Source: an uncultured Thermoleophilaceae bacterium (GTDB lineage Bacteria; Actinomycetota; Thermoleophilia; Solirubrobacterales; Thermoleophilaceae). Taken from it: 32,000 nt of DNA. Where the stretch lies: the NCBI GenBank assembly GCA_963746825.1, contig CAVVCU010000005.1, forward strand, positions 742,446 to 774,445, read 5' to 3'. A program made the translations under genes and the position numbers. Shown one piece after another: positions 10,623-28,453 of this stretch. The notes below the pieces were generated by a model. That model had not been told where the DNA came from, did no database searches, and saw only the letters and a program-made list of their open reading frames with translations. Numbering within the stretch: the first letter of the stretch is position 1; every line of letters starts with the position of its first letter.

Positions 10623-11555
10623 ATGACGAGCTCGGTCCGGCTCGAGCCCGTGGTCGCCGCCGACGCGGCGGGAGTGCTCGAGCTCGTGTCGGCGCTCGAG
10701 TCGTCGCTGTACGGCCAGAGTGCGTTCTCGCAGGCCGACCTGCAGGACGAGTGGGCGGACCTCGAGCTCGAGCGGGACGCCCGCGTGGTTCGCGAGGGCG
10801 ACCGCATCGTCGGCTACGGCATTGTGCGGGAGCGAGGCGAGCACTGGCTCACGGAGGGGTACGTCCACCCCGACGCGCTCGGGCGCGGAATCGGGAGGCT
10901 GATCGCGACGGAGCTCGAGCAGGGCGCGGCCCGGGCCGGCGCACGCAAGGTCCAGAACGCCATCCTCGAGGCCGACTCCGCCGCCCGCGGGCTGCTCGAG
11001 TCGCTCGGCTACGACGCGGTGCGCGTCTTTCGCGAGTTGCGCATCGAGCTCGAAGCGCCGCCGCCCGCACCCGAGTGGCCGGACGGGCTGTTCGTCGTCC
11101 CCTTCGATCCGGAGCGTCACGCGCGCGAGTTCCACGCCGCGCACCAGGAGGCGTTCGCGGACGTGTGGGACTACACGCCGCGCGATTTCGAGTCGTGGTC
11201 GAAGCTCCACATCGGGAGCGAGAGCTTCGACCCGACGCTCTGGTGCGTCGTCCGCGCCGAGGATGAGATCGCCGCCGGCACGATCTCCAGAGGCGACACG
11301 TACGGCGGCGGCTTCGTCGACGTGCTGTTCACGCGCCGCCCATGGCGCAGGCAGGGCGTGGGGGCGGCGCTCCTGGTCGATTCGTTCGGGCGCTTCTGGG
11401 AGCGCGGCGAGCGCAGCGTCGGGCTCAGCGTCGACACGGCGAGCGACACCGGCGCCTTTCGCCTCTACGAGCGCGCCGGGATGACGGCAACGCTGGGCTG
11501 GCTGCTGTACGAGAAGGAGCTTGGCGACGCCGGCGCCCCCGCGACCCGTCACTAG
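10623..11555 (+). CDS. GNAT family N-acetyltransferase, two-domain (MshD-like architecture)
   Basis: 310 aa. The start is 2 nt after the oxidoreductase stop. Two acetyltransferase-like halves: RGIGRLIATELEQGAARAGA, and RRQGVGAALLVDSFGRFWERGERSVGLSVDTASDTGAFRLYERAGM. Confidence 0.8.
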   Translation: MTSSVRLEPVVAADAAGVLELVSALESSLYGQSAFSQADLQDEWADLELERDARVVREGDRIVGYGIVRERGEHWLTEGYVHPDALGRGIGRLIATELEQGAARAGARKVQNAILEADSAARGLLESLGYDAVRVFRELRIELEAPPPAPEWPDGLFVVPFDPERHAREFHAAHQEAFADVWDYTPRDFESWSKLHIGSESFDPTLWCVVRAEDEIAAGTISRGDTYGGGFVDVLFTRRPWRRQGVGAALLVDSFGRFWERGERSVGLSVDTASDTGAFRLYERAGMTATLGWLLYEKELGDAGAPATRH

Positions 11556-11577
11556 GCTGGGCGGGCTGAAGAACCCC

Positions 11578-13876: not shown

Positions 13877-15322
13877 GTGACCCTTGTCGTGGCCAGCCGC
13901 GCGGATTTGACCATCGACGCGGTACGTCGGGTGGCGTGGGAGGGCGAGGGGGTCGGACTCGCTCCGGAGGTCATCGAGCAAATGGACCGCAGGCATGGTG
14001 AGTTCAACGACTATCTCGCCGCGTGCCTGGCCGAGGACCCCGGTGCGCTGCTCTACGGCGTCACGACCGGGCCGGGCGACGCGGGAGCTGCGGTGCTGTC
14101 CGACCGGGCCCTCGCCACCAGGCCGCGTGGGCTGTGGACCGCCGCATCGTTCGGGGAGCCGCTTCCCGAGCGGGTCGTGCGGGGGATCGTGCTCGCGCGC
14201 CTGGCCAACTTCGTGGAGGGCCACGCGGCGGCTCGGCCGCAGGTGGCCGCCGCGGTGGCCGCGATGCTCGACGCAGGGCCGCTTCCGGCCGTGCCCGCGC
14301 GGGGCAACGGCGGATCGGGCGAGATCCTCGCGCTCGGCCACCTGTTCGGGGAGGTGGCCGACCGGCTCGAGCTCGAGCCGAGGGAGAAGATGGCGTTGAT
14401 CAACGGATCGCCCTGCGCCGCCGCGATGGTGGCCGATGCCGCCCTCGCCGGACGGGGCCGACTCGAGCTCGCCGAGGCCACCTTCGCGTTGTCGGTCGAG
14501 GCCATCCGGGCGCCGCTGGAGGCGTTCGCGCCCGAGCTGGGGGACCTGTGGGGCAATGAACACGAGGCCGAGGCGTTGACGTCGTTCAGGTCACTGCTGG
14601 CGGGAGGCGCTCACGAGCGCCAGGCCCATCAGGCTCCGGTGAGCTATCGCGTTTTGCCGCGGGTGCTCGGCAGGCTCCGCGAGGCGCAGGCGCACGCTGA
14701 GCGGACCGCGACGGGCTCGCTGGGCTCGGTGACCGACAATCCGGTCTTCCTGGCGCCGAGCGAAGACCACCCGCTGGGCGCGCTGGTGTCGAACGGCGGC
14801 TACCACAACGATCGTGCCCATCCCGCGCTGGACGGACTGGCCCACGCCTGGGCGGACGTCGCGCAGCTCGCTCAGCGACACATCGACAAGCTCTTCCAGC
14901 ACCCGGTCAGCGCGCCGTTGCTGGCCGGCGAATGGCTGACCAAGCCGCTGCACATGGTGGGCGCGAGCTACGCCGAGGAGGCGCGAACGGCGGCGCAGAC
15001 CACCGTGCTCGGCCTGGGCGGCTTCGGCCAGAACGACCTCCCCTCTCCCGCCTTTCTCGCGTGGAACAAGGCGGACGCCGTCGGCACCTGCCTCGAGCGG
15101 ACACTCGCGGTGCTGGCCGCGCTCGCCTCGCAGGCTCTCCACGTCGCCGGCCAAACGCCACCGCCCGCGCTCGCACCGCTGCTGGATCAGGTGCGCCGCT
15201 CCTTTCCGCCCGTTGACTCGCCCCGCCAACTCGGCCCCGACGCCGAGCGCCTCGCCGCGGCGTTCAGCCGCCACGTGCAACCGGAGCGCGTTCAGCGCTT
15301 CGGCGGTAGCGAGCGTGCGTAG
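13877..15322 (+). CDS. Aromatic amino acid ammonia-lyase (HAL/PAL/aminomutase) family protein with a divergent MIO motif
   Basis: 481 aa, GTG start. Family landmarks: LYGVTTGPG (cf. YGxNTGFG), GNGGSGEILALGHL (cf. GSVGASGDLAPLSHL), SVTDNPVF, NGGYHN. Confidence 0.8.
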   Translation: MTLVVASRADLTIDAVRRVAWEGEGVGLAPEVIEQMDRRHGEFNDYLAACLAEDPGALLYGVTTGPGDAGAAVLSDRALATRPRGLWTAASFGEPLPERVVRGIVLARLANFVEGHAAARPQVAAAVAAMLDAGPLPAVPARGNGGSGEILALGHLFGEVADRLELEPREKMALINGSPCAAAMVADAALAGRGRLELAEATFALSVEAIRAPLEAFAPELGDLWGNEHEAEALTSFRSLLAGGAHERQAHQAPVSYRVLPRVLGRLREAQAHAERTATGSLGSVTDNPVFLAPSEDHPLGALVSNGGYHNDRAHPALDGLAHAWADVAQLAQRHIDKLFQHPVSAPLLAGEWLTKPLHMVGASYAEEARTAAQTTVLGLGGFGQNDLPSPAFLAWNKADAVGTCLERTLAVLAALASQALHVAGQTPPPALAPLLDQVRRSFPPVDSPRQLGPDAERLAAAFSRHVQPERVQRFGGSERA

Positions 15323-15918
15323 GCCACTCCCCGCTTGACCCACGGCTCCAGCTGGCGCTTCGTCCGCACTCCCTCCGGGTCCACGCGCAGCCAGCCCTGC
15401 ATCTCACGGCCCCGCATCTCGAACGGCCGCGCGTGTGGCTTCTCGACGAGCTTGTCCGTCTCCTCGTGCTCCACGCGCACCATCAGGCCGCCCTGACCGC
15501 TGACCGCGACAGACATGTTCCCGGCGATCAGAAAGGCCAGGCCGCCGAACATCCGCATCTCGGTGAGATCGGATTCGCCGGCGACCAGCTCGCGGATGCG
15601 GTTGGCCAGGTCCTCGTCGTACGCCATGGGCCCGACATGGTGGCTCAGGAATCGGCGCGGCGCAAGCGGGCTCGAGCCGCGTCGGTGCTCGATCACCGCG
15701 ACGACCTCGAAGTCGACGAGGTCATCCCATCGAGCGATCCATGCGTCCAAGAGCGCGCGGTCGTCGGCCTCCATGAGTTGGAAGCACCGGCTGAGCCCCT
15801 CGTCGACCCAGCTGTCCACGTACCTGAGGCCCTCGGGCAGCATGCGCCCTTGTGCCGCGGCCCGCTCGTACACCGGGGCCGCGCCCTGCGTGAATCGCTC
15901 GATGACCATGTACTGCAC
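15292..15918 (-). CDS. DUF3303-like / TfoX N-terminal-domain fusion protein (208 aa)
   Basis: The N-terminal ~78 aa MQYMVIERFTQGAAPVYERAAAQGRMLPEGLRYVDSWVDEGLSRCFQLME...DFEVVAV resemble the small stand-alone DUF3303 family. From the internal ATG at 15627, MAYDEDLANRIRELVAG...EMRMFGGLAFLIAGNMSVAV resembles TfoX_N proteins. There is no stop between them. GGAG lies 8 nt upstream of the GTG at 15918. Confidence 0.6.
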   Translation of the reverse strand: MQYMVIERFTQGAAPVYERAAAQGRMLPEGLRYVDSWVDEGLSRCFQLMEADDRALLDAWIARWDDLVDFEVVAVIEHRRGSSPLAPRRFLSHHVGPMAYDEDLANRIRELVAGESDLTEMRMFGGLAFLIAGNMSVAVSGQGGLMVRVEHEETDKLVEKPHARPFEMRGREMQGWLRVDPEGVRTKRQLEPWVKRGVAYARSLPPKR

Positions 15919-15985: not shown

Positions 15986-17248
15986 CTAGGCGGGCAGCCA
16001 CGCTCCGTGCAGCCCGTACGGCACCCGCACCGGCAGGCGCAGCCGGGCCACGGGGCCGCCGGCGAGGTCGCCGGCATCGAGCAGCAGCAGCTCGGCCGCG
16101 TCGCGGGCGGTGTCGTGGACGAAGCCCGCCACGAGTGACTGGCCGTCCACCTCACCGAGCGAGACCATCTCGCCCCCGAAGCGCCCCGGTCCGAACTCGT
16201 GGTCCTGGCGCGCGCCGCTCTCCAGGTCGATCGCGGAGACCCCGCGCGCCACGGTGTAGTTGTCGCCGGTCGGGCGCGTCACCACGACACGCCGCCCGTC
16301 GGCGAGCAGGGTCGGGAAGTCGCACGGCTGGTCGTCGATGTCCGCCTCGACCACGCCGCCGTCGCGGGTGTCGATGCTCCAGCGCCGCAGCGAGCCCGGC
16401 GTGTCCTCGAAGGGGTTGTCCTCGCCCGCGGTCACGCCCGGGACGCGCCGGCGGCAGCCGACGACGTGCACGGTCGGTCCGTCGGACCACGCGGCGGCCA
16501 GGTGCGACACATGGGCGGGCGTCACGTCCGCCACCACCGCGCTGCAGCCGGTGCGGTCGGCCAGCGCTATCGCCGCGCCGGTCTCGGGCTCCCACTCGAC
16601 ACCACGCTCGTGGCGGCGCCACGGCAGGTCGAGCGTGACCACGCGTCCGTCGACCACGCGCAGGTCGTGCATGAACGGCCGCCGCTCGGTCGAGTACTCG
16701 CCGGTGGCGCGCCAGTGGCCGTCGTCACCTCGCTCGAGGAAGGTCAGCGCCGGGTCGTTCCATCGCGTTCCGACGGTCACCGGCCGTCCGTCGACCCGCG
16801 TCACGTGGGGCAGCACCATGTCGACCCCCGGCGCATCGACCACGTCGGGGCCGACCGTCTCCAGCGTGACCGGGTCCACGCGCCATGGGCGCCCGCTGTC
16901 GCTCAGGGCCAGCAGCCCGTCGGCGCCCAGGTCGGCGAGGCCGGCCGACGCCGGCTCCTCGGCCCGCCCGAACGCGGGCACCAGGTCGTCGAGCGACGGC
17001 GTGCGCACCCAGCGGTTGCCGTAGGTGGCGCGGCCGTCCTCGATCCGCACGGCGTGGACCATGCCCTGCCCGTCGACCCATACCCCGCCCACGCCTTGGC
17101 TCGCCGCGCGGTTGGGGCCGTTGCGCACATAGGTGCCCGCCAGCCCGGCGGGCAGGGTCCCCTGCACCTCGAGCTCGATCTCCACCCCGCCGGCCTCGGA
17201 GGCGACGGGCCGGTAGTTGGAGCGCAGGTCGGCGGTCGCGGTGCTCAT
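15986..17248 (-). CDS. Carotenoid cleavage oxygenase (RPE65/CCO) family non-heme iron dioxygenase, last gene of the RiPP operon
   Basis: 420 aa from ATG 17248, which overlaps the upstream ABC stop (ATGA, 17245..17248). Family motifs: VDGQGMVHAVRIEDGRATYGNRWVRT, and four candidate His-ligand contexts LPHVTRVDG, FMHDLRVV, VSHLAAAW, YGLHGAWL. The long track ORF (to 18826) is an out-of-frame shadow over the ABC gene. Confidence 0.85.
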   Translation of the reverse strand: MSTATADLRSNYRPVASEAGGVEIELEVQGTLPAGLAGTYVRNGPNRAASQGVGGVWVDGQGMVHAVRIEDGRATYGNRWVRTPSLDDLVPAFGRAEEPASAGLADLGADGLLALSDSGRPWRVDPVTLETVGPDVVDAPGVDMVLPHVTRVDGRPVTVGTRWNDPALTFLERGDDGHWRATGEYSTERRPFMHDLRVVDGRVVTLDLPWRRHERGVEWEPETGAAIALADRTGCSAVVADVTPAHVSHLAAAWSDGPTVHVVGCRRRVPGVTAGEDNPFEDTPGSLRRWSIDTRDGGVVEADIDDQPCDFPTLLADGRRVVVTRPTGDNYTVARGVSAIDLESGARQDHEFGPGRFGGEMVSLGEVDGQSLVAGFVHDTARDAAELLLLDAGDLAGGPVARLRLPVRVPYGLHGAWLPA

Positions 17249-20100
17249 GCCGTCTGCCTGCGCACCAGGTCGTCGAACAGGCCGGGCTCGGCGGCCAGGG
17301 TGTCGTAGGTCCCCTCCTGCACGATCCGCCCGTCGTCGATCACGTACAGGTAGTCGGCCCGGCGAATGGTGCTCAGGCGGTGGGCGATCACGATGCGGGT
17401 GGCGTCGAGGCCGTCGATCGCCCCCATCACGTCCTCCTGGGTCTCGTTGTCGAGCGCGCTCGTGGCCTCGTCGAGGAAGAGGATGCGAGGCCGGTGCGCG
17501 ATGGCGCGGGCGATCATCAGGCGCTGCACCTGCCCGCCCGAGAAGGTGACCCCGTTCTCGCCCACCAGCGTGTGCATCCCCATGGGCATGCGATGGATGT
17601 CGTCGGCCAGCCCGGCCTGCTCGGCGGCCCACCAGGCATCGTCCTCGGTGAGCGCGGAGTTGCCGATGATGTTGCTCTCGAGCGTGCCCGGCATCGGCTT
17701 GCTGTCCTGGAGTACGACGCCCACCTGGCGGCGCACCATTCGCATGTTCAGCGAGGCGAGGTTGCGCTCGTCGTAGACCACGCTGCCGCGATCCGGTGTC
17801 TCGAAGCCCAGCAGCATCCGCATCACCGTCGACTTGCCCGCCCCCGACGGCCCGACCAGCGCGACGTTCTGCCCCGGCTCGACGGTCAGGGTCACGCCCT
17901 GAAGCGTCGGCTGGGCGTCGGGCCCGTAGCGGAAGTGGACGTTCTCGAGGCGGATGCGCCCGGTGAGGAGGCCGGGGTCGCCGTCGGGCTCGTTTCGCTC
18001 CGGCACCGCCTCGAGCACGGGCCGAAGCCGCTCGTAGAGCGGGATCACCGTGATCGACGCCACCAGGGCGAAGCTCAGCTGCGTCGCGGCGACGGTGAAC
18101 TGGGCCAGGGCGGCGGCGAAGGCGACGAACGTGCCCGTGGCGATGTCGGCGTTCATCAGCCCGGCCACGACGGCGAACAGGATCATCGACAGGACCAGCG
18201 GGGTGCCCGCGATCGTGGTGGCCAGCGCGCAGTACACGAGCTGGCTGCGGTAGTTGGCGTCCTGCTGGCGGTGGAAGCGCTCGGCCCAGCGGGCGAAGGC
18301 CGGGATCTCGCGGCCGGCGATGCGGATCTTGTCGATTCCCTCGAGCAGCCCGAAGAGGACGCCGAAGATGTGTCCCTTCTCCAGGAACATCGTGCGCTGG
18401 TGGCGGACCTGGCGCACGCTGAGCCAGGCCAGCAGCGCCCCCACCGCCACCAGGCCGGCGACGGCGAACAGGGCGAGCAGCGGGCTGTAGACGAACAGCA
18501 GCGCCAGGCTGAAGCCGCCGAACATCGTGCTCAGCACCGCGGACACGGTGGCGTTGGAGAGGATCGCGTTGATCGAGTTGACGCCGTAGGCCCGCGACGT
18601 CAGGTCGCCGGTCGCGTAGCCCGCGTGGAAGCTCGCCGGCAGCGCCAGCAGCCGGTCCCAGACGCCCGCCTGAAGCACCCCGTCGAGGTTCCCCGACAGG
18701 CGTGCCACGGCGATGGCGCGCGCGTAGGCGAGGACGCCCCCCGACACCGCGGCGGCCAGCAGGAAGGCGGCGGTCCACCAGATCGCGGGGCGATCGTTGT
18801 CGGGGATGAACGCGTTGAACAGCCACTGGGTGCCGATCGGCAGCGCCAGCGCGAGCAGCCCGCCGGCCACGCCGGCCACGAGCAGCGAGAGCAGGGCGGC
18901 CTGCTGGTGGCGAAAGCCGATGCGCAGCAGGTCCTTCAGATCCAGCGGGCGGGCGGGAAGCGGCGCGTAGAGCTCAAAGCCCAGCGGGTCGAGCGCCGCG
19001 AGCAGGTCGGCGTCGACCCGGGACTCGGCGCCGGTGGCCGGGTCGTGACAGAGGTAGCCCCCGCGGGGCCGCGGCAGGAGCGCGACCGGGTCCCGCTCGG
19101 CGCCGCGAAAAGCCAGCACCGGGCTCGTGGCGCGCCGGTGCCAGCCGGAATCGAGCGAGACGCGGCGGTGGCGTACCCCCGCCGCCATGGCGATGGCCGA
19201 CACGGGGTCGGTGCCGCGGCGATAGGACGCGGGTGGGTCGACGAACTCCACGCCCAGCCAGGCCCCGATCCTGCGACAGGCGCTCAACGTGCGGTCGAAG
19301 CCGTCCTGCTCGGCAAGCGGTGGCGCGGCGGGCATGTCCCCGAGCGCGGACGCGATGTGGGTGATCGAGCGGGTGAGCAGCGCGGTGCCGCCCGCGCGCG
19401 CGGCGGCCAGGCGCGCGTCGGAGTCGCGGTCCAGTTGCTCGACCCTGGCCCGCGCGGCCGTGAGCAGCACCCGATGGGAGCCGCGAAGTGCCTCGAGGGT
19501 CGCCGCGGTGTCGCCCTGCGCGAGCGGGTCGGTCACCACCACGCGCGTCGCGCCGCGGGCGATCAGCCGCACGCCGGCGGCGAGGGGAATCGCGGCCGTT
19601 GAGTCGAGCGCGCCCAGCACATCGTTCCGCGGGCCGATCAGCTCGAGGCGTCCCGCCTGGACCGCCAGGGCGAGCCCGTCGGCGCGCAAGCGGACGATGT
19701 CGCCGTCGCCCAGCTCGTAGGCCCCGCCATCGGCGGCGTCCAGCACCCGGTCCGCCTCGCCGTCCTCGTCGAGCGTCCCGGCGAGCGCGGCAAGCCACGC
19801 GCCCAGCGCAGAGGCGTCGACCGTGGCCTCGGCCAGCTCGGTCCGGGGCTCGCCGACCGCGACGACCGTGTGGCCGTCGGGCACGTCGGCGGGGTCGAGC
19901 GGGGCCACGCACGCGCCGGGCGCGGCCCGCAGCAGGAAGTGGCGCCGGCCGCCCGGCTCCGCGAGCGTGCCCGGCTGGAGGAAGACGTTGAGCGCGCCGG
20001 CCTTGACCAGCTGGACCCGCTCGGTCGCCTCGAGGGCAAAGGGGTTCGTGGCGTCGAAGGCCTCGGTGCGGGCCTCGCCGTGGGCGTCGGAGACGGTCAC
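17245..20100 (-). CDS. ABC exporter (permease + ATPase) with ~390-aa non-peptidase N-terminal region; NHLM-system second transporter type
   Basis: 951 aa from GTG 20100 (GTGA overlap with the upstream ABC stop). Six-TM region, Walker A GPSGAGKST, signature FSGGQVQRLMIARAI, Walker B ILFLDEATSALD. The N-terminus has beta-rich repeats and a degenerate C39-like segment (LSACRRIGAWLG ... SPVLAF). Confidence 0.85.
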   Translation of the reverse strand: MTVSDAHGEARTEAFDATNPFALEATERVQLVKAGALNVFLQPGTLAEPGGRRHFLLRAAPGACVAPLDPADVPDGHTVVAVGEPRTELAEATVDASALGAWLAALAGTLDEDGEADRVLDAADGGAYELGDGDIVRLRADGLALAVQAGRLELIGPRNDVLGALDSTAAIPLAAGVRLIARGATRVVVTDPLAQGDTAATLEALRGSHRVLLTAARARVEQLDRDSDARLAAARAGGTALLTRSITHIASALGDMPAAPPLAEQDGFDRTLSACRRIGAWLGVEFVDPPASYRRGTDPVSAIAMAAGVRHRRVSLDSGWHRRATSPVLAFRGAERDPVALLPRPRGGYLCHDPATGAESRVDADLLAALDPLGFELYAPLPARPLDLKDLLRIGFRHQQAALLSLLVAGVAGGLLALALPIGTQWLFNAFIPDNDRPAIWWTAAFLLAAAVSGGVLAYARAIAVARLSGNLDGVLQAGVWDRLLALPASFHAGYATGDLTSRAYGVNSINAILSNATVSAVLSTMFGGFSLALLFVYSPLLALFAVAGLVAVGALLAWLSVRQVRHQRTMFLEKGHIFGVLFGLLEGIDKIRIAGREIPAFARWAERFHRQQDANYRSQLVYCALATTIAGTPLVLSMILFAVVAGLMNADIATGTFVAFAAALAQFTVAATQLSFALVASITVIPLYERLRPVLEAVPERNEPDGDPGLLTGRIRLENVHFRYGPDAQPTLQGVTLTVEPGQNVALVGPSGAGKSTVMRMLLGFETPDRGSVVYDERNLASLNMRMVRRQVGVVLQDSKPMPGTLESNIIGNSALTEDDAWWAAEQAGLADDIHRMPMGMHTLVGENGVTFSGGQVQRLMIARAIAHRPRILFLDEATSALDNETQEDVMGAIDGLDATRIVIAHRLSTIRRADYLYVIDDGRIVQEGTYDTLAAEPGLFDDLVRRQTA

Positions 20101-22286
20101 TGAGCGCCCACCAGCTCGGCGTAGCGCCCGTCGGCGGCCATCAGGTCGTCGTGGGTGCCGCGCTCGGACACCTTGCCCTGGTCGAGCACGATGATCTCGT
20201 CGCAGTCGCGGATCGTGCTCAGGCGGTGGGCGATGATCAGGCACGTGCAGCCGCGGCGGCGGAGGTTGAGGTCGATGGCCAGCTCGGTCTGGGTGTCGAG
20301 CGCGCTGGTGGCCTCGTCGAGCACCAGCACCGACGGCTCCAGGGCGAGTGCGCGGGCGATCTCGAGTCGCTGGCGCTGGCCGCCGCTGAAGTCGCGCCCG
20401 TCCTCGGCCACGCTGCTCTCGAGCGCTCCCGGGCGCTGCATGATCACCGGCCGGATGCAGGCGTCCTCGGTGGCCCGTTCGACGACCTGGCGGTCGACCG
20501 ACTCGTCCCAGAGCGTGAGGTTCTGGGCCACCGTGCCGGAGAACAGGCGGATGTCCTGATCGACCGAGGCCACCGAGCCCGTGATCACGTCGCGCGGCAG
20601 CTGGGTGCGGTCCACCCCGTCGAGCAGCACCTGGCCCTCCCACGGCTCGTAGAGGCCGAGCACGAGCTTCCCGACCGTCGACTTGCCGCTGCCGGTCGAG
20701 CCCACGAGCGCCACGCGCTGCCCGGGCGCCAGCCGCAGCGAGAAGGACTCGAGCAGCGGGGCCTGGTGGCGCCCGTAGCCGAAGGTCACGTCACGCAGCT
20801 CGACGAATCCCTCCAGCCTGCGCGCGCGATCCGCGGACGCTCCGTTGGCCTCCGCCGGGCGGGCGGGATCGCCGATGCCCGCCAGGTGAGGATCGATGTC
20901 GTAGTCGAGCACGTCCTGGACCTGGGCCAGGTTGGCGCGCGCCGTCTGCAGCTGGGTGGCCAGGGCGACGAGGTTCGAGATCGGCAGGAGAAAGGAGGCC
21001 ATCAGCGTCGTGAAGGCCACGAGCGCCCCGACAGTGAGCTGGCCCTCGGTTACCAGCAGAGCGCCTCCGACGAGCACCACGGCACTGCTGAAGGCCGACA
21101 GCGTGGCGGGTGTTGCCGTGAGCGTGGCGGTCAGCCCGCCGACCGACTGCGAAGCGTTGACCGCGTGCGTCTGGAAGCCGGCCCAGCGGGCGAAGTACTC
21201 GTCCTCGGCGCCGGTGGCCTTGATCGACTCGATGATCCCGAGGCCGCCGAAGGCCACCCCGTCGAGGCGCACCTGCTCGTGCTGGAGCAGGTTGTTGGCA
21301 TCGATGCGCCGGCGGGCGACGAGCTGGAGCGCGACGAAGTTGAGCAGCCCGATGCCGATGCCGATCAGCGTCAGCGTCACGCTGTAGTGGAACATCACCA
21401 CCACGTAGAGGACGAGGGTGATCAGCCCGATGAAGGCCGTTGCGAGCTGGCCGGAGAGCAGCTGAGCGATGTCGTCGTTGAGCTGCACGCGCGTGACCAC
21501 GCCGCCCACGAAGCGCTGGGCGAAGAACTCGCTGGGCAGGCGGAGCAGGTGCCAGAGGAAGCGGCTCGAGGTACGAAGCGTGAGCCCGATCTGGAGCCGC
21601 ACCAGCGCCAGCTGCTGCACGTAGGTGAGCGCCAGCAGGAGAGCGAGGGTGAAGGTCATGGCGCCCAGGAGCGGCCAGACCGAGTCCGACGAATCCGGAA
21701 TCAGCACCTCGTCGATGAACAGCTGGGAGAACAACGCCGCGAGGATCGTCGGCACGGCCAGGGCCACCCCCGCGATCACGGCAGCGAGCAACCCCAGCCG
21801 CGAGCCGTCGAGTATGCGCCAGAGCGACCGCGTGAAGGTCGAGCGCCGGCCGCCCCGCTCGAACTCGGCCGTGGGCTCGAAGGTGAGGACGATGCCGGAG
21901 TAGGCGTCGGCGAACTCCTGGAAGCTGATCTTGCGGCGGCCGATCGCGGGGTCGGCCAGTTCGATCGTGTCGCCGTGAATGCGCGTCAACACGACGAAGT
22001 GGCTCGCGTTGAGGTACACGATCGCCGGTAGCCGCACGTCGGCCAGCTCCTGCTCGGTCTTGCGGTATCCGTGCGCGTCGAGCCCGTACGAGCGCGCCGC
22101 CGCCAGCAGCGCGGCCGCGCTGGCCCCGTCGCGCGAGACGCCGCAGTCGGCGCGCAGCCGCTCGAGGGCCACGAAGCGGCCGTGGGCGCCGAGCACCATC
22201 GCCAGCGACGCCGCACCACACTCCGCCTCCTCCATCTGGAGCACCACCGGCACGCGGCTGGCCGGGATGTCGTGCTCCCGTTTCAC
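20097..22286 (-). CDS. Peptidase C39-domain bacteriocin ABC exporter (leader-cleaving, double-glycine type)
   Basis: 729 aa, GTG start 22286 (GTGA overlap with the HlyD stop). C39 motifs QMEEAECGAASLAMVLG (Gln/Cys) and NASHFVVL (His). Walker A GSTGSGKST, signature FSGGQRQRLEIARAL, Walker B VLVLDEATSALD. Confidence 0.9.
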   Translation of the reverse strand: MKREHDIPASRVPVVLQMEEAECGAASLAMVLGAHGRFVALERLRADCGVSRDGASAAALLAAARSYGLDAHGYRKTEQELADVRLPAIVYLNASHFVVLTRIHGDTIELADPAIGRRKISFQEFADAYSGIVLTFEPTAEFERGGRRSTFTRSLWRILDGSRLGLLAAVIAGVALAVPTILAALFSQLFIDEVLIPDSSDSVWPLLGAMTFTLALLLALTYVQQLALVRLQIGLTLRTSSRFLWHLLRLPSEFFAQRFVGGVVTRVQLNDDIAQLLSGQLATAFIGLITLVLYVVVMFHYSVTLTLIGIGIGLLNFVALQLVARRRIDANNLLQHEQVRLDGVAFGGLGIIESIKATGAEDEYFARWAGFQTHAVNASQSVGGLTATLTATPATLSAFSSAVVLVGGALLVTEGQLTVGALVAFTTLMASFLLPISNLVALATQLQTARANLAQVQDVLDYDIDPHLAGIGDPARPAEANGASADRARRLEGFVELRDVTFGYGRHQAPLLESFSLRLAPGQRVALVGSTGSGKSTVGKLVLGLYEPWEGQVLLDGVDRTQLPRDVITGSVASVDQDIRLFSGTVAQNLTLWDESVDRQVVERATEDACIRPVIMQRPGALESSVAEDGRDFSGGQRQRLEIARALALEPSVLVLDEATSALDTQTELAIDLNLRRRGCTCLIIAHRLSTIRDCDEIIVLDQGKVSERGTHDDLMAADGRYAELVGAQ

Positions 22287-23092
22287 GGGAAGACCTGGTC
22301 GAGTACCGATCCCTCCGACACGACGATGCTGGCCTCGGTCAGCTGGCCGGCCGAAATCGAGGCGTCCGACCCGCTCGGCGTGGACCAGGCCAGGCCTCCG
22401 GGCCCCGACGGGTCGGAGCGCAGCTTGATCTCAACCAGGTAGACGGCCTGCGAGCGAGCAACCTCGTTGATCACGCGCTCGCCGCCGAAGATGCGCTCCA
22501 GCTCGGCGTCGCCGGCCGGATAGGGGTCGATGTCGGCCACCTTGCCGTGGGCGTAGCCGAGCTCGGCGCCGCCCACGCTGTCCGGGCGCACCTGCACCGG
22601 CGCACCCACGTAGATCTCCGAGCGCCGGTCGACCGGCACCACGACGTTCGCGGCCAGCGCCCCGCCGGTCGGCTCGAGTGAGAAGAGCCGCTCGCCGGTG
22701 GTCACCACCGCCCCGGTGCTCGCCACGGCGTCGACCACGCGTCCGTCGATCGGTGAGCGGAGGACCGTGGGCGTGCCGTCGGCCCCCGTGATGGTGGCCA
22801 GCGCCTGGCCCTTCCGTACGCGCGCGTCGATGTTTGCCTGGAGCGCCGTCACGCGGCCGGCGGCCGGCGCCTGCACGACGCTCGGGCCCTCGCCGCGCTG
22901 CAGGATGCCGCGGCTCGGCACGGTCTCGCGCACGGTGGCGAAGAAGCCCCACGCGACCGCGAGGCCCACGAGGACGAGGAGCGCGGCGAGCACGATCCAC
23001 AGCCGTGGGCGGATGAGGGTGAGCAGGCGGTCGAGCTGGTCCGGCGAAACGGGGCCGCGGCCTGCGGGGGCGTCGACGGGCTCGGCGGTCAT
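22283..23092 (-). CDS. HlyD-family secretion adaptor, short form (NHLM-system secretion protein type)
   Basis: 269 aa from ATG 23092 (ATGA overlap with the SagB stop). N-terminal anchor LWIVLAALLVLVGLAVAWGFFA, then barrel-sandwich/lipoyl-like strands (VVQAPAAGRVTALQANIDARVRKGQALATI ... LRSPIDGRVVDAVASTGAVVTTGERLFSL). There is no long coiled-coil hairpin. Confidence 0.8.
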   Translation of the reverse strand: MTAEPVDAPAGRGPVSPDQLDRLLTLIRPRLWIVLAALLVLVGLAVAWGFFATVRETVPSRGILQRGEGPSVVQAPAAGRVTALQANIDARVRKGQALATITGADGTPTVLRSPIDGRVVDAVASTGAVVTTGERLFSLEPTGGALAANVVVPVDRRSEIYVGAPVQVRPDSVGGAELGYAHGKVADIDPYPAGDAELERIFGGERVINEVARSQAVYLVEIKLRSDPSGPGGLAWSTPSGSDASISAGQLTEASIVVSEGSVLDQVFP

Positions 23093-24423
23093 GGCGCACC
23101 CGTGAGCAGGAACTCGCCGACGCTGCCCTCGTCCCAGCGGTCGAGCCCGCTGGCCCGCTCGAAGGCAAGGGCGTCGCCCCCGCCGAGTGCACAGCCGCCG
23201 ATCCCCGTCGCCGTCGCCGCGAGGTAGAGGGCGTGGTAGGCGACGCCGACGTCCTTGAGGGCGGCGGCATACGCCATGCCGGTGTACTTGTATTGCAGGC
23301 GGCCAAAGCGCGCGGCCAGTACCAGCAGCACCTGGACCGGCGCCCCGTCGGGCAGGCCCGCCGTCCAGCGCGCGCCGCCCACGAGCGGCGCCAGATCGGC
23401 GTCGGTAGCAGTTTCGATCCGGCGCAGCACGTGCTCCTCGCCCGAGTAGTGGTAGAGCCCTGGGTCGATCCCCTCGCAGTCGACGACCAGCGGGTAGAGG
23501 CCCACGGCGGCGAGCGATCCGGCGCTCGGCACCGGCCGGCTGACCTCGTCGCCGGCAGGGGCCGGGCCCACCGCCCGTACGCGCACCGTCCTGTGCAGCA
23601 GCTCGGCGAGCTGATCGATCGTCAGCGATCCGGCCGCCCGGCGCCGCGACCGGCGGCGCTCGGCCACCTCCGCGTAGCCGGCTGCGTCGTCCGGAGCCGG
23701 CTCGATGAGCTTGATCGGGGCGCCCGTGGCCCCGGCGGGCAGATGCTCGCCCGGGAGCGCGTCCATCTTCCCCGCGAGGGGCTTGGTGGCTCCGTAGGGC
23801 CGCGGAGAACGGCCCCAAAGGCGGCTGCGTGTGTGGAAGAGGCGGTCGTGGAACTCCCAGCGATCCACGGGCTCGAGCGGCCCGGGCGCGTCGTCGTCGG
23901 TGGCCACGAGGATTCCCGCGTGGCACAACACGTTCCGCCATGCCGGGGGCACGTCACCGGAAAGCAGCGCGCTCGCGAAGCGGGGTTCGATCGGGTCGCT
24001 GCGCCCCGGGTCGGCCGCCGATTCGAGGATCAGCCCGCCTAGGTCGCCGAGGCCGCGGCGCAGGAACACGTCGGGACTCAGCTCGAGCTCGTGGGCGTGT
24101 CCCGTGGGCTCGTCGGGCAGCGCCGGTGTGGCGATCGTGGCCGCCACGCCCTGCTCGTCCAGCAGCTGCGCGGAGATCATCCCGCGGCCACACAGCCGGT
24201 CGAGCAGCGACCGGGCCTCGATCTCGGCCAGCAATCGGTTGTCCGGGCCCGCGGCGCCCGCCGCCTGGTCGATCAGCTGGTCCGCGGACACCCCGGGCGA
24301 GGAGCCCAGCAGCTCCAGCAGCGTGGCCGACAACGGCGACGCGCCGGCGGGGACCGCCTCGAGGCCCGGGCGCCATCCAAGGGCCACCGTGGTCTGCGCC
24401 TCGGTTAAAAGAAGACTGCCCAC
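23089..24423 (-). CDS. SagB-type FMN-dependent azoline dehydrogenase (nitroreductase fold) with N-terminal extension
   Basis: About 444 aa. The C-terminal half matches SagB/McbC-type dehydrogenases (RRSRRRAAGSLTIDQLAELLHRT, PSAGSLAAVGLYPLV, YKYTGMAYAA, GIGGCALGG). The start is set at GTG 24423, a 19-nt overlap with the YcaO gene. A GTG 9 codons downstream is an alternative. The track ORF start at 24741 lies inside the YcaO gene. Confidence 0.85.
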   Translation of the reverse strand: MGSLLLTEAQTTVALGWRPGLEAVPAGASPLSATLLELLGSSPGVSADQLIDQAAGAAGPDNRLLAEIEARSLLDRLCGRGMISAQLLDEQGVAATIATPALPDEPTGHAHELELSPDVFLRRGLGDLGGLILESAADPGRSDPIEPRFASALLSGDVPPAWRNVLCHAGILVATDDDAPGPLEPVDRWEFHDRLFHTRSRLWGRSPRPYGATKPLAGKMDALPGEHLPAGATGAPIKLIEPAPDDAAGYAEVAERRRSRRRAAGSLTIDQLAELLHRTVRVRAVGPAPAGDEVSRPVPSAGSLAAVGLYPLVVDCEGIDPGLYHYSGEEHVLRRIETATDADLAPLVGGARWTAGLPDGAPVQVLLVLAARFGRLQYKYTGMAYAAALKDVGVAYHALYLAATATGIGGCALGGGDALAFERASGLDRWDEGSVGEFLLTGAP

Positions 24424-26708
24424 GGGTTCAGGTCCTCCTCGGGGACGGGACGCTCGAGCCAGCCGAGCGCGACGGGGACGTCGTAGAGCCGCCCGGCGCC
24501 GAGCCGCGACCACATGTGGCGCAGCCCCGGTGCGACGGCCTTCACCACCGGCAACCCGATGTCCGGGCGCGTCTGGTCGAGCAGGTACAGCGGCACCCCG
24601 GCCTCGGCAATGCGCTCCGTGCAGGTGGTGAGCTCGGTCAGCAGGTCGGGATCGGACCGGTCGGGCATCTCGGCGATCGAGCGCGACGGGCCCGGAGCGG
24701 GCGCCAGGTAGGCGTGCTCCTCGAGCCGGGCGCAGCTCCACCAGCGGGAGGCCGCCTCGTCGAAGGTGACGTAGCGGTCCTCACCGGCGTCACCCCACCG
24801 CTCGAAGCTGGCCAGAAACTGGACCAGCTCGGAGAGGGCGCGCACCACGGCTCCGGCAGGGTCGATGTGGGCTCCGAAGCCGAATACCAGCTCCTCGTCG
24901 GAGCCCCGTCGGCGGCTGGCGGCGCACACCACCGGGATGCCGAGGTCGTTGGTGAGGTCGATCGCCCACACCTCGCGGCCGAGCTGGTCGAGGCGGTTGA
25001 CGAGTCGCTCGACGTAGGGGTCGGTGACCGAGGCGAGGTCGATGCCGGGCCGCTGCACGCGGTTGTACCACCAGATTCCGACCGCGTCCCGCTCGATCAG
25101 CTCGAGCACCCCCTGCAGGGCCGCGTCCTCCAGTGACGAGCCGGCGGCGTGGCCGTTCGAGTCGGCCAGGAAGTAGAGCTCCGAAGCGCTTCGGTAGCCG
25201 TGGTAGCTCGCGTAGTTGAAGTAGCACATGCCCGCCGGCAGCAGGCGGCGAGTGCCGTCGACCGGCGACCACATCGGGCTCCAGTCGATCTCCGCGTCGA
25301 CGTCGAAGGGCTCGGGGACGAGCTGGGACGAAATGGTATGGATGCGGCCGGCCTCGTTGAGCGCCTCGCGCTCGCGGTACTGGCGCTCGCTGAAGCCCAT
25401 CACGTCGTTGGGGTGGATGGCCTCCTCCAGCTCGGAGTAGCGGCCCCGAACATTGGCCTCGTCGCCGCGGTACACGCCCGAGTAGCGCTCGAGCGCCTCG
25501 CAGATGGCGCCGACGCGCGCGTCCGCGTCGGTCGGGCCCTTGCCGCCCGAGCGAACCCTGAGGCTCCGGCGCAAGAAGGCGAGGCCGTCGTACTGGACGG
25601 CGAAGTTGTGACCCGCCGTGTAGGCGTGGATCACTCCCTCCTGGTCGGCGAACACGCTGTCGACCGACTTGACCGCACCGGTGATCGGGCTGACGTGGGT
25701 GCCCACGCGCTCGAGGGTGGCCTCGACGCTCGCCGCGCGGTGCAGGCGGTTGCCGGCCGAGGGCCGGCTGCTGAGCACGGGAGCCGAGAAGCCGCGGTCC
25801 GCGACCATTCCGGGGTCGCCGCATGCCGGGCATTGGGGGCGCCGGATCAGCGCGTGCCGCGCGACCTCGAGGGTGCGGGTGTCGATCGTGAGCAAAGTGC
25901 CCTCGAGCGGCCGGGCGGCGGTGCCCCCGGCGACGTTGCGCAGCTGCTGTGCGGCCAGGGCGGCGGCGAGCCGTTCGGCCGCGGGATCCTGTGCGCGGCC
26001 GACCGGGCTCTCGATCGGTGCGCCGCGCTGCTGAGACAGATACGACTCGACGGCCCGGTTGCCCTGAAGGCGCTCGGCCAGGCAGTGCCAGCAGCCGGTT
26101 TGCCCGGGCACCAGCAGTGGGCCGAGCCAGATCGTGGCGCCCACCGGCTTGAGCAGCAGCCAGGGCTCGCCCGCGGCCCGCTGGCGCTCGTCCACCGCGG
26201 CCAGCTCGGAAGTGAGGTAGTCGGCGGTGGCGACCGCCGTGAGCGTGCCCTCCGCGCCCGGAGCACCGAGCAGCCCGGCGGCGTCGAGCGCCTCGTCGAG
26301 CACGGTGGGGTCGATGTCGCCGAGGGTCGTGGCGCGCACACCGGTGGCCGCGACCCGCGGCTCCGCGTCATCGGCGCTCACCCCCGCCAGCGCCCAGTAG
26401 GCGCGCTGGCCGTCGGAGACGCCGGCGTCGCCCGCGGTCTCCAGGTAGCCCTTCGCGGTCATGGTTTCGAGCACGTGGTAGGTCTCGAGGGGCGTGAAGC
26501 GGTCGGCCAATGCCTCCGCGAGGTCGTCGGCGCTTCGCGTGCCATCGACCAGCTCACCCAGCGCGCGGTGGATGGGCTCGCTCAGCACCTTCGAGCCGTC
26601 CTCGGAGAGCAGGAAGACCCCGACCCCGTCCACGCGCTCCACCGAGAAGCGCGGATCGAAGCGCACCGCGGTGCTGCCCGTTGCGAGGGGAGGCGAAAGG
26701 GTGCTCAT
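24405..26708 (-). CDS. Fused TOMM cyclodehydratase: E1/ThiF-like docking (C-protein) domain + YcaO (D-protein) domain
   Basis: 767 aa, ATG 26708 (ATGA overlap with the LLM stop). N-terminal winged-helix-like segment (VLSEPIHRALGELVDGTRSADDLAEAL). The E1-like region ends in RRPQCPACGDP. The C-terminal half is a YcaO/SagD-type domain (GKGPTDADARVGAICEALERYSG ... NGHAAGSSLEDAALQGVLELIERDAV ... PVVKAVAPGL). Confidence 0.9.
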   Translation of the reverse strand: MSTLSPPLATGSTAVRFDPRFSVERVDGVGVFLLSEDGSKVLSEPIHRALGELVDGTRSADDLAEALADRFTPLETYHVLETMTAKGYLETAGDAGVSDGQRAYWALAGVSADDAEPRVAATGVRATTLGDIDPTVLDEALDAAGLLGAPGAEGTLTAVATADYLTSELAAVDERQRAAGEPWLLLKPVGATIWLGPLLVPGQTGCWHCLAERLQGNRAVESYLSQQRGAPIESPVGRAQDPAAERLAAALAAQQLRNVAGGTAARPLEGTLLTIDTRTLEVARHALIRRPQCPACGDPGMVADRGFSAPVLSSRPSAGNRLHRAASVEATLERVGTHVSPITGAVKSVDSVFADQEGVIHAYTAGHNFAVQYDGLAFLRRSLRVRSGGKGPTDADARVGAICEALERYSGVYRGDEANVRGRYSELEEAIHPNDVMGFSERQYREREALNEAGRIHTISSQLVPEPFDVDAEIDWSPMWSPVDGTRRLLPAGMCYFNYASYHGYRSASELYFLADSNGHAAGSSLEDAALQGVLELIERDAVGIWWYNRVQRPGIDLASVTDPYVERLVNRLDQLGREVWAIDLTNDLGIPVVCAASRRRGSDEELVFGFGAHIDPAGAVVRALSELVQFLASFERWGDAGEDRYVTFDEAASRWWSCARLEEHAYLAPAPGPSRSIAEMPDRSDPDLLTELTTCTERIAEAGVPLYLLDQTRPDIGLPVVKAVAPGLRHMWSRLGAGRLYDVPVALGWLERPVPEEDLNPWAVFF

Positions 26709-27982
26709 CGGCCGGCCGCCTCGAGGGAGACCATCTCGTCCGGGCTCCAGCCGTCGACCAGGTCGAACTCCGGCATCACCTCGGAGGCGAAGAGCTCGAG
26801 CTGGGCGATCAGCAGGTCGTCGTCCACGAGCCCCCAGGGCAGGTGCCAGACGAAGTACTCGATCCCGGCCTCGACGATGGCCTCCATGCGGCGCTTCACG
26901 TCGTCCAGGAGCCCGCCGATGACCATGCCCGAGCTCAGCAGCCGCCCGCCCACGGTCTCACCCGGGCCAGGGACCGGTCCGGTCTCGCCGGGGTGGCGCA
27001 GGGTCTCGAGAAAGCCGAAGTTGCGGTACCAGTCGGTCCAGATCGCGCGGTTGTGGTTGCGGGTCATCTCGTCCAGCTGGCTGCGATCGCGACAGATCTG
27101 GACGCTGCGGACGATGCCGGTCTGCTCGCCGGGGGCGAGCTCGCGCCCCACGCTCGCTGCCACCTCGCGGTAGCCGCGGGCCAGGCGAAACACGGTCTCG
27201 TCCGGCGTGGCGAGCATGGTCGGGATCAGGCCCTCGCGCGCTGCCCAGTCGACCGTCTTGGCGCTGGTCGAGTTGGCCTGGAACACCGGCGGGTGGGGCT
27301 GCTGGAAGGGCCGCGGCACCACGCTCACGCCGACGACCGTGCCGTTCTCGTCGACCTCGCCGGGCGTGCCGTATTGGCGGGTGAAGTCGGCCGGCGGCCA
27401 GTTCTGGATGCCCTCGTCGTAGGGGTAGGGCACCTCGTAGTGCTCGCCCTTGTACTGCAGCAGGTCGTCCGTCCACGCGGCCTTGAGGATGCGGAAGTGC
27501 TCGGCGAAGAGCCGGCGGTTGCGGGCATCGGCTTCCTCGTCGCCGAGGGACGCGGCCCTGTTTCCCATGTGCTGGCCGAGCACGTCGACCCAGCGGCGCT
27601 GATACCCGCGGGCAAGGCCGACGAAGAACCGGCCCCCCAGCATGTGGTCGATCATCGAGCAGCGCTCGGCGAGCCGGATGGGATCGTGAGTCGGCAGCAC
27701 GAAGCCGAGCTGTCCATGGCGCAGCCGGGTGGTCCGGCTGCCCAGATGGAGGTTGTACAGCCCGGGGTCGGGCGAGAGCTCGAGGCCCTCGGAGTGGAAA
27801 TGGTGCTCGGTATGGGAGAGGCCCCAGTAGCCGAGCTCGTCCAGGGTGATGGCGAGCCCCTCGAGGCTCGTGAGCATCTCCTGGAATACCTCGTTGTTGC
27901 GTCCAATGGGACGCCGCTCGAGGTCGGCGGCCGGATCGCCCGCCGACGGGTGGACCTGAATGATGACTTTGGTCTTAGCCAC
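26705..27982 (-). CDS. Luciferase-like monooxygenase (LLM) class flavin/F420-dependent oxidoreductase
   Basis: 425 aa, GTG 27982, 30 nt downstream of the precursor stop. LLM landmarks: LGYWGLSHTEHHF, RLRHGQLGFVLPTHDPIRLAERCSMIDHMLGGRFFVGLARGY, and a C-terminal TIM-barrel region. The cofactor (FMN versus F420) cannot be told from sequence by eye. Confidence 0.85.
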   Translation of the reverse strand: MAKTKVIIQVHPSAGDPAADLERRPIGRNNEVFQEMLTSLEGLAITLDELGYWGLSHTEHHFHSEGLELSPDPGLYNLHLGSRTTRLRHGQLGFVLPTHDPIRLAERCSMIDHMLGGRFFVGLARGYQRRWVDVLGQHMGNRAASLGDEEADARNRRLFAEHFRILKAAWTDDLLQYKGEHYEVPYPYDEGIQNWPPADFTRQYGTPGEVDENGTVVGVSVVPRPFQQPHPPVFQANSTSAKTVDWAAREGLIPTMLATPDETVFRLARGYREVAASVGRELAPGEQTGIVRSVQICRDRSQLDEMTRNHNRAIWTDWYRNFGFLETLRHPGETGPVPGPGETVGGRLLSSGMVIGGLLDDVKRRMEAIVEAGIEYFVWHLPWGLVDDDLLIAQLELFASEVMPEFDLVDGWSPDEMVSLEAAGR

Positions 27983-28012
27983 GACGGCGGGCGGTAGTCA
28001 GGCCGGCGTGGG

Positions 28013-28358: not shown

Positions 28359-28453
28359 GTTGTCGGGCGACCTTTGTGGCCGCGTTCGCCTCGCCTACTC
28401 GGACGGCGCGTGGCGATCTTTAGCCCCGGCTTCGGGCCGGTACCGTCAGGGCG

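Follow-up and report, generated by a model that had tools for sequence, protein, structure and literature searches.

A predicted eight-gene NHLP-type thiazole/oxazole peptide operon with a luciferase-like flavin enzyme and a carotenoid-oxygenase-family protein in uncultured Thermoleophilaceae

When genes for two redox enzymes lie within a set of genes for making and exporting a modified peptide, do they belong to that set, and what kind of peptide would it then produce? This question is raised by a 32,000-nucleotide stretch of DNA, called the window here, from an uncultured Thermoleophilaceae bacterium (assembly GCA_963746825.1, contig CAVVCU010000005.1, forward-strand positions 742,446 to 774,445). 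Eight consecutive genes on its minus strand encode a putative precursor of a peptide made on ribosomes and then post-translationally modified (RiPP), a luciferase-like (LLM) flavin-dependent oxidoreductase, a fused E1-like/YcaO cyclodehydratase, a SagB-type dehydrogenase, an HlyD-type adaptor, two ABC exporters (ABC1 and ABC2) and a protein of the carotenoid-cleavage-oxygenase (CCO) family. An earlier interpretation made from the letters alone, the sequence-only reading, had assigned the precursor and the YcaO, SagB, HlyD, ABC1 and ABC2 proteins to the NHLP/NHLM bacteriocin system, and had placed the LLM enzyme and the oxygenase outside the definition of that system; our profile-based assignments agree on both points. 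As a variant of the NHLP thiazole/oxazole RiPP system, the locus is new, genuine, conserved and seldom met, with an oxygenase of a type that, as far as we could determine, is unprecedented for RiPPs. We put at roughly 0.7 the probability that the operon is functional, with translational coupling of its genes, and represents a rare family of RiPPs belonging to uncultured soil Actinomycetota of the classes Thermoleophilia and Acidimicrobiia.

Because the window has a G+C content of ~71%, the raw list of open reading frames (ORFs) is full of spurious frames, and the coding frames were settled by a third-codon-position GC frame plot. The plot revealed one unbroken minus-strand coding block at positions 15986-28345, with frame switches exactly at the proposed gene boundaries, and this matches the eight head-to-tail minus-strand ORFs spanning 12,360 bp that the sequence-only reading had proposed. 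All eight genes are intact, with a strong coding signal. At five of the seven junctions (LLM/YcaO, SagB/HlyD, HlyD/ABC1, ABC1/ABC2 and ABC2/oxygenase), stop and start overlap by 4 bp (ATGA/GTGA), the YcaO and SagB genes overlap by 19 bp with the GTG start chosen, and the precursor and LLM genes are 30 nt apart. A GGAGGG ribosome-binding site (28353-28358) lies 7 nt 5' of the ATG of the precursor gene. Taken together, the overlaps, the short gap and the ribosome-binding site are the signature of a translationally coupled operon. The intergenic region that carries GGAGGG (28346..28453, minus strand) separates the precursor gene from a divergent ExoIII-like gene and presumably contains the promoter; a simple scan found no upstream match to the sigma-70 consensus, and a promoter/terminator scan gave no signal beyond shuffled expectation.

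To identify the gene products, we compared them with curated hidden Markov models (HMMs) from Pfam and NCBIfam/TIGRFAM, using the cut-offs of the models. The functions proposed earlier were reproduced: the NHLP leader, E1-like/YcaO, SagB, HlyD, ABC1 and ABC2 proteins all scored above their NCBIfam cut-offs, and all of the models that had been suggested as a check (NHLP/NHLM, SagD/YcaO, SagB and PF03055) were matched significantly. Chance could not account for a set of matches of this strength. The precursor (28013-28345, minus strand, 110 aa) matched the NHLP leader model TIGR03793 with 54.6 bits (cut-off 50.9), and PF02979 with 26.8 bits, slightly below the cut-off of 27.2. Its leader ends in LEGVAGAG directly before the first Cys, followed by a 16-aa core that is encoded at 28016..28063 (minus strand) and translates as CACCCCCTGAASDEIL, so that the C-terminal part of the precursor reads ...SDSELEGVAGAG-CACCCCCTGAASDEIL. 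V-A-G is invariant in five of five aligned precursors and present in most others, and a Gly-Gly-type leader cleavage site (V-A-G-A/G-G) is predicted before the core. Cleavage after V-A-G would leave one or two small residues ahead of the core, allowing even the first Cys to be cyclised.

Fifteen homologous precursor clusters share the same architecture, with leaders that are 69-99% identical. The commonest core in the family is CSCCCCTGAASDEIL, and the others, besides CACCCCCTGAASDEIL, are CCCCCCTGAASDEIL, CCCCCTGAASDEIL, CSACCCCTGAASDEIL, CTCCCCTGAASGETL, CCCCCCCGAASEEIL, CIPCCCSCCGAPSDEVL and CCCCCCSSASASDEIL. Cores are 14-17 aa long and follow the pattern C-x-CCCC-T-G-A-A-S-D-E-I-L, in which the Cys/Ser/Thr run varies and G-A-x-S-x-E-x-L is retained. 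Five to nine heterocyclisable residues come right after the Gly-Gly-type site, nearly always followed by Gly and then by a conserved acidic tail. The precursor family is rare, since a metagenome scan with the precursor alignment yielded only one more locus (L075).

The enzymes that would act on this run of residues are a heterocyclase and a dehydrogenase. The heterocyclase (24405..26708, minus strand, 767 aa) combines a winged-helix, RiPP-recognition-element-like (RRE-like) domain (PF21084, residues 18-90), a leader-binding E1-like domain of the thiazole/oxazole-modified microcin (TOMM) type (TIGR03882, residues 182-346, 141 bits, cut-off 36.9) and a SagD-type YcaO domain (TIGR03604, residues 389-762, 263 bits, cut-off 219; PF02624, E 9e-93). 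The E1-like and YcaO partners required for TOMMs and for linear peptides that contain azol(in)es (LAPs) are both within this one protein, which also has the CxxC motifs CWHC (206) and CPAC (293). The SagB-type FMN dehydrogenase (23089..24423, minus strand, 444 aa) scored 115.4 bits against TIGR03605 (cut-off 78.4) and also matched PF00881; its ThcOx-like N-terminal extension gave a weak match to PF22767, and a Lys-Tyr pair lies within QYKY at residues 377-380. The SagB homologue appears to be in two frames in two of the related loci (L007, 12289-13362, and L009, 12241-13661), and is intact in the window and in L010 and L011. These splits are possibly sequencing or assembly indel errors and not real pseudogenes.

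The export genes are of the NHLM type. ABC1 (20097..22286, minus strand, 729 aa) is a C39-peptidase/permease/ATPase exporter (TIGR03796, 948.8 bits, cut-off 853.3; PF03412, E 3e-36) with intact C39 motifs, namely the catalytic Cys23 in ECGAAS and the His in SHFVVL. ABC2 (17245..20100, minus strand, 951 aa) matched TIGR03797 over residues 270-949 (793.4 bits, cut-off 709.4). The sequence-only reading had given it a non-peptidase N-terminus of ~390 aa. The non-peptidase character stands, as BLASTP found no similarity to the C39 domain of ABC1, but the length does not, as residues 270-400 belong to TIGR03797; the transmembrane region begins near residue 406, and only residues 1-270 are without a model match. 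Residues 1-400 had no Pfam match even at E values up to 10. Both a cNMP-binding domain and a degenerate C39 domain were considered for the N-terminus and rejected on the negative Pfam and BLASTP results. For residues 1-270 (window 19291-20100, minus strand), a set of 1.84 billion representative proteins contains only nine relatives at E <= 1e-3, of which two are as large as an ABC2 protein (~970 aa). This segment looks like an orphan domain confined to this cluster family, perhaps a module for binding a substrate or partner. The HlyD-type adaptor (22283..23092, minus strand, 269 aa) is truncated: it has an N-terminal transmembrane helix beginning at residue 31, aligns only to positions 254-417 of the 421 in TIGR03794, which is the C-terminal ~40% of the model, and is missing the long coiled-coil part. 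The short form is plausibly an adaptation to a host with a single membrane (monoderm). Judged by these profile matches, the locus has the tested defining features of both NHLP/NHLM and TOMM/LAP systems, with a variant YcaO C-terminus and a marginal HlyD.

Whether the LLM enzyme and the oxygenase belong to this system was addressed by comparing related loci, which were found with the YcaO protein as query in a scan that took a single genome for each prokaryotic species. The five close relatives came from metagenome-assembled genomes (MAGs) of three Thermoleophilaceae (L007, L009 and L008, with YcaO identities of 93%, 82% and 79%), one member of the Solirubrobacterales (L010, 66%) and one of the Acidimicrobiia (L011, 60%); L007 is 93-96% identical to the window. 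L007-L010 have all eight genes, in the order seen in the window. The only difference in L011 is that the LLM and precursor genes are swapped, the LLM gene coming before the precursor gene (8278-9974) and the other six being in the usual order. In a sixth assembly the cluster is split over two contigs (L079 and L002), and partial clusters occur on further metagenome contigs (L003-L006, L075 and L081). The flanks of the window are common only to L007 and are unrelated in L008-L011, L002, L003 and L081, where the outside genes include cytochrome bd, a GntR regulator, HicAB, ribosomal proteins and others. An all-against-all comparison of five loci revealed no ninth conserved gene, the genes sought being a regulator, an immunity gene, a flavin reductase and a dehydratase. 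Because the flanks differ and no ninth gene is conserved, the functional unit consists of exactly eight genes, including those for the LLM enzyme and the oxygenase. These two are fixed members of the cluster and not chance neighbours, as they are conserved across six or more genomes and eight or more contig contexts. The YcaO relatives at 40% identity or less (from cyanobacteria, the Roseobacter group, Bradyrhizobium and others) are all without the oxygenase and mostly without NHLM transporters, and a more distant NHLM-linked locus (L017) also has no oxygenase.

To quantify the selective pressures acting on the cluster, we made Nei-Gojobori estimates for the window against L008 and L009. The dN/dS values were 0.15-0.20 for the LLM gene, 0.18-0.21 for the oxygenase gene, 0.19-0.26 for the YcaO gene and 0.28-0.39 for the SagB gene; against L008 alone, the values for the genes of the cluster span 0.14-0.28. 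They are to be read as relative and not absolute, because dS is probably underestimated at high GC bias in the third codon position. The LLM and oxygenase genes are under purifying selection, and the constraint on them is no weaker than that on the YcaO and SagB genes.

The LLM protein (26705..27982, minus strand, 425 aa) matched PF00296 with an E value of 9e-29, and no NCBIfam subfamily model reached its cut-off; the best match was the F420-type model TIGR03619, at 58.9 bits against a cut-off of 166.9. In a fold search with its AlphaFold2 model (pLDDT 87), the top 35 matches were FMN-dependent and the F420-dependent FGD1 first appeared at rank 36. The nearest folds were RslO1, bacterial luciferases, a type II Baeyer-Villiger monooxygenase, the OX domain of a polyketide synthase/non-ribosomal peptide synthetase, and SsuD/MsuD/SfnG. 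The history of this protein differs from that of the oxygenase. Its homologues linked to the cluster are 66-96% identical, and beyond them, without a sharp break, comes a very large family at 48-58% identity, whose members are found outside RiPP contexts in ordinary genomes of Actinomycetota, Chloroflexota and Bacillota; in Mesobacillus (Bacillota), the gene of a 53%-identical homologue has an FMN reductase gene two genes away. The enzyme was recruited from this widespread family, itself probably FMN-dependent. On the fold ranking and the taxonomic spread, an FMNH2-dependent monooxygenase is a more probable identity than an F420H2 reductase for this protein, whose NCBIfam scores are all far below cut-off. 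A homologue adjoins the precursor gene in every related locus, even where the order is swapped.

The only role that we found for LLM enzymes in RiPP clusters, in the literature searched, is the reduction of dehydroalanine (Dha) to D-Ala. That reaction depends on a dehydratase, and the cluster encodes none. Other LLM genes near related machinery were also noted. In Microbacterium sediminicola (L076, 1-8299), a 55%-identical homologue lies ~3.6 kb downstream of a pair consisting of a C39-ABC exporter and a second ABC exporter, with unrelated housekeeping genes (PabB-like and IspG) in between; this proximity may be a coincidence or the remnant of a related system. In five alphaproteobacterial MAGs (L018, L020, L021, L023 and L030), fused-YcaO/SagB loci have a different LLM gene ~2.4 kb downstream of SagB. 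We rejected these as kin of the association described here, as their products are ~25% identical and shorter (341 aa in L018), and the genes are on the opposite strand. The association of LLM enzymes with TOMM loci may recur independently.

The last gene of the operon (15986..17248, minus strand, 420 aa) encodes the CCO-family protein. It matched PF03055 (RPE65) end to end with 202 bits (cut-off 27) and reached no NCBIfam equivalog cut-off, the best score being 149 bits against 675. Among 5.8 billion protein clusters searched, its clade comprised nine relatives at 48-94% identity, the next proteins being at 33% or less. Each member with recoverable context sits right after ABC2 with a 4-bp overlap, which is retained in L001, L002, L003 and L081; the clade is found only at the 3' end of the eight-gene operon. 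Two shorter outgroup oxygenases (P0018 and P0025) are not in peptide or RiPP clusters. The iron-ligand His residues (H148, H194, H249 and H414) and the second-shell E360 are invariant in the clade. At two other second-shell positions the clade has Asp (D117 and D310), where the carotenoid oxygenase ACO has Glu150 and Glu370 and outgroup proteins mostly have Glu; the D117 position is Thr in one member of the clade. The AlphaFold2 model (pLDDT 88.5, pTM 0.90) is a nearly helix-free, seven-bladed propeller with TMq values of 0.82-0.87 to lignostilbene dioxygenases (LSDs), NdCCD and ACO. Alignment to ACO and CCD1 showed a 20-35-residue deletion in the dome segment, which in the solved CCOs, going by the structures of ACO, forms part of the hydrophobic substrate entrance. 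We read the protein as an iron oxygenase, predicted to be active, with a more open entrance, and such an entrance would fit a peptide-borne substrate. In a literature search, incomplete in coverage, no paper was found that connects a carotenoid-type oxygenase with a RiPP, a YcaO protein or a precursor peptide, and none that describes the eight-gene architecture; NCBIfam has no model specific to the cluster's LLM or oxygenase.

From these assignments we can postulate a pathway, in which every chemical step, and the order of the steps, is inferred. The 110-aa precursor would consist of a nitrile-hydratase-like leader of ~94 aa, the Gly-Gly-type site and the core, which in the family has 14-17 aa. 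The fused RRE/E1-like/YcaO protein would bind the leader and carry out ATP-driven cyclodehydration of the Cys run, and probably of Thr and possibly of Ser, to azolines, which the ThcOx-like SagB flavoprotein would oxidise to azoles. The product may be a planar rod of about five to seven contiguous thiazoles, with or without a methyloxazole, bearing the acidic tail. The LLM enzyme (probably FMNH2-dependent) and the CCO-family protein, a predicted four-His Fe(II) oxygenase with a trimmed dome, would then modify the peptide oxidatively, where the sequence-only reading had predicted extra tailoring of an oxidative or reductive kind. The C39 domain of ABC1 would cut off the leader, and ABC1 would export the product together with ABC2 and the short HlyD. 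Carotenoid and stilbene cleavage oxygenases cut C=C bonds in lipophilic small molecules, and a contiguous polyazole, as a planar conjugated rod, would loosely resemble a stilbene or polyene. The guess that we prefer, at low confidence, is that the oxygenase treats the polyazole as such a carotenoid- or stilbene-like rod and cleaves a C=C bond in or beside it to give carbonyls, and, equally speculatively, that the LLM enzyme acts on one of these carbonyls much as luciferases or Baeyer-Villiger enzymes do. LLM-like domains bring about an alpha-hydroxylation-type release as a carboxamide in myxothiazol biosynthesis. As another low-confidence option, the LLM enzyme might alpha-hydroxylate the Gly that almost always follows the azole run, freeing the tail as a carboxamide. 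The oxygenase would then be the first member of its superfamily to act on a ribosomal peptide, oxygenating or cleaving a bond in or beside the polythiazole rod, with the LLM enzyme processing the carbonyl or freeing the tail; we offer this as a tentative proposal, with the odds somewhat below even.

Several points weigh against the operon and pathway as we propose them. The YcaO protein ends in ...LNPWAVFF, a variant and not the canonical form of the Pro-rich (PxPxP) motif of azoline-forming YcaO enzymes; its fused relatives end in ...LNPIPMFF or ...LNPMNIPF. The HlyD protein passed TIGR03794 narrowly, at 161.2 bits against a cut-off of 156.2. Neither the F420-type nor the FMN-type models of NCBIfam gave the LLM protein more than a low score, and the two kinds scored about alike, which leaves room for a reductive role, and the cluster encodes no flavin reductase. 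Asp at the two second-shell positions of the oxygenase might reflect an activity that is changed or reduced. Aromatic residues are absent from the core, and no Ser/Thr dehydratase is encoded in the cluster or its conserved flanks, so the bonds of the azole rings are the only C=C offered to a cleavage oxygenase; we know of no precedent for the cleavage of an azole-ring C=C by such an enzyme.

This lack of an obvious alkene substrate in the core would also suit a situation in which the LLM enzyme, the oxygenase or both are linked to the operon without modifying the peptide, acting instead in immunity (degradation or detoxification of the product), on a small-molecule co-substrate or signal such as a carotenoid-derived aldehyde, or in regulation. 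The oxygenase gene comes last, after the exporters, at a spot often held by immunity or accessory genes, and close relatives of the LLM enzyme occur in ordinary metabolic contexts. Nevertheless, we consider such roles unlikely. The oxygenase clade occurs nowhere except stop-to-start with the ABC2 gene of this cluster, the LLM gene keeps its place beside the precursor gene even when the two are swapped, and both genes are as constrained as that of the YcaO protein. A carotenoid substrate is disfavoured, because the oxygenase has lost the dome segment of the hydrophobic entrance. About as improbable, in our view, is that the LLM enzyme is an F420H2-dependent reductase resembling LanJC, in which case the tailoring would be reductive and its target a C=N or C=C bond, as in the conversion of an azoline to an azolidine. 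Actinomycetota commonly make F420, the best NCBIfam match is to an F420-type model, though far under its cut-off, and the LLM role found in the RiPP literature is a reduction; the fold ranking, in which FGD1 follows 35 FMN-dependent matches, the Bacillota homologue encoded near an FMN reductase, and the lack of a dehydratase that could form Dha argue against it.

The extreme Cys density of the core beside an acidic tail, and neighbouring genes that give no hint of an antibiotic target or of immunity, would be compatible with a metallophore rich in thiols and thiazolines instead of an aromatic polythiazole toxin, with the oxygenases tuning or releasing the metal-binding unit. We regard this as more doubtful than either of the preceding alternatives. 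Azoles are to be expected, since every locus retains a SagB dehydrogenase, and that of the window scores above its cut-off; moreover, the export genes are of the bacteriocin type NHLM, and no genes for metal uptake or a metal receptor are conserved beside the cluster. The view that we are dealing with a remnant, decaying or silent, or with an artefact of assembly, can be given hardly any credence. All related clusters are known from MAGs or metagenome contigs and SagB is seemingly split in two of them, but these splits are compatible with indel errors, the eight genes of the window are intact with strong coding signal and retained catalytic motifs, and the dN/dS values against L008 are those of genes under constraint.

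Upstream of the cluster lie genes for an ExoIII-like nuclease (28454-29314, plus strand) and a LigD Prim-Pol protein (29325-30392, minus strand); downstream lie genes for a DUF3303/TfoX_N fusion protein (15292-15918, minus strand) and an aromatic-amino-acid lyase (13877-15322, plus strand), which converge with an overlap of ~30 nt, together with a glycosyltransferase-like gene and, farther off, a DnaE-type polymerase gene. The description of the neighbours as DNA-repair genes, given by the sequence-only reading, holds for the ExoIII-like nuclease and LigD Prim-Pol, but not for the DUF3303/TfoX_N protein, the lyase or the glycosyltransferase. Its statement that integrases, transposases and tRNAs do not flank the cluster was borne out, as none was found in the window, nor was any tRNA or Rfam element found anywhere in it. 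None of these neighbouring genes adjoins the cluster in any related genome except L007, and the lyase and DUF3303/TfoX_N genes are not cluster members, since they are conserved only in that near-identical locus. Elsewhere in the window, a 1478-aa ORF (2688-7124, minus strand) resembles a DnaE-type polymerase only from residue ~324, where the PHP domain starts, and its 5' part overlaps a nitronate-monooxygenase gene (6620-7708, minus strand) in another frame; the true start is for these reasons probably near 6170. A hybrid histidine kinase/response regulator/Hpt protein (1-2268, plus strand) runs off the start of the window, and ORFs at 10563-11915 and 30402-31235 (both on the minus strand) have good coding signal and no Pfam match.

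The cluster is a good lead for genome mining. At 12.4 kb it is small enough for direct synthesis and heterologous expression, and its 16-aa core and eight genes form a compact system for studying how long runs of adjacent Cys residues are processed. To our knowledge, almost no natural products have been characterised from Thermoleophilia and Acidimicrobiia. If the proposed roles of the oxygenase and LLM enzyme are true, their product would be a new RiPP scaffold, with a chemistry that is without precedent among peptide natural products.

Comparison with known systems shows where the cluster departs from them. The NHLP/NHLM bacteriocin system was reportedly defined bioinformatically by Haft, Basu and Mitchell in 2010 (TIGR03793-03797). 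Like it, the window has an NHLP leader, a Gly-Gly-type site, C39-ABC1, ABC2, HlyD and an adjacent cyclodehydratase and dehydrogenase; unlike it, the cluster adds the fixed LLM enzyme and carotenoid-type oxygenase, its HlyD is cut to 269 aa, its ABC2 has the orphan 270-aa N-terminal domain, and its hosts are uncultured Thermoleophilia and Acidimicrobiia. Classical proteusins of the polytheonamide type have a radical-SAM epimerase or C-methyltransferase, whereas the eight window proteins contain no radical-SAM domain and no further gene is conserved. A contiguous Cys/Thr run also follows the cleavage site in streptolysin S. That system differs in its leader family, its discrete C and D proteins, a CaaX-type protease, other transporters and a much longer core, and it has no extra oxygenases. 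The position of the run right after a Gly-Gly-type site and the SagB/C/D-type maturation logic are shared (SagA/SagBCD; PMC2676033), and the fate of the Cys-rich region of streptolysin S was called speculative in a 2009 study (PMC2676033).

Of the characterised azole products with NHLP leaders, the nearest to the window cluster is nostatin A, a 'proteusin' from Nostoc, in which a YcaO cyclodehydratase and an azoline oxidase make thiazoles and oxazoles (PMC11583998). The NHLP-type leader and both of these enzyme types are common to the two. In nostatin A, however, the azoles are isolated from one another in a core of 30 aa, and its cluster includes a LanM-like dehydratase and a PoyD-like epimerase; the window cluster is without both of the latter enzymes and has a 16-aa contiguous-Cys core, an LLM enzyme and a CCO-family oxygenase. 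The earlier statement that NHLP-class products are largely uncharacterised is in this light somewhat dated (PMC11583998), although none is known from the eight-gene set. The cyanobactin enzymes PatD/LynD and ThcOx also resemble those of the window, with winged-helix, E1-like and YcaO domains in one protein and a nitroreductase-fold oxidase with an N-terminal extension. The nearest YcaO relatives outside the family include cyanobacterial ones at 38-40% identity, and Cox et al. (2015) put NHLP/Nif11 D proteins together with those of cyanobactins (PMC4603692). In contrast to the cyanobactin systems, the window cluster has no PatA/PatG proteases and no macrocyclisation, and it has an NHLP leader and a contiguous-Cys core.

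The two additional enzymes each have a counterpart elsewhere. LanJC reductases of lanthipeptide, lipoavitide and daptide clusters are likewise LLM-family enzymes in RiPP clusters. They reduce Dha made by a dehydratase, whereas the window cluster has no dehydratase and the fold and distribution of its LLM enzyme point to the FMN type. With solved CCOs (ACO 2BIW, LsdA 6OJR, NOV1 5J53 and NdCCD 6VCF), the oxygenase shares the seven-bladed propeller, the four Fe-ligand His residues and one second-shell Glu. It differs from them in being 18-25% identical, almost helix-free and shorter (420 aa versus about 450-540 aa), in the deletions at the dome and tunnel entrance, in having Asp for Glu at two second-shell positions, and in the embedding of its gene in a peptide operon. 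If members of this clade do act on peptides, they would extend the CCO superfamily to peptide substrates and add a tailoring reaction to those of RiPPs.

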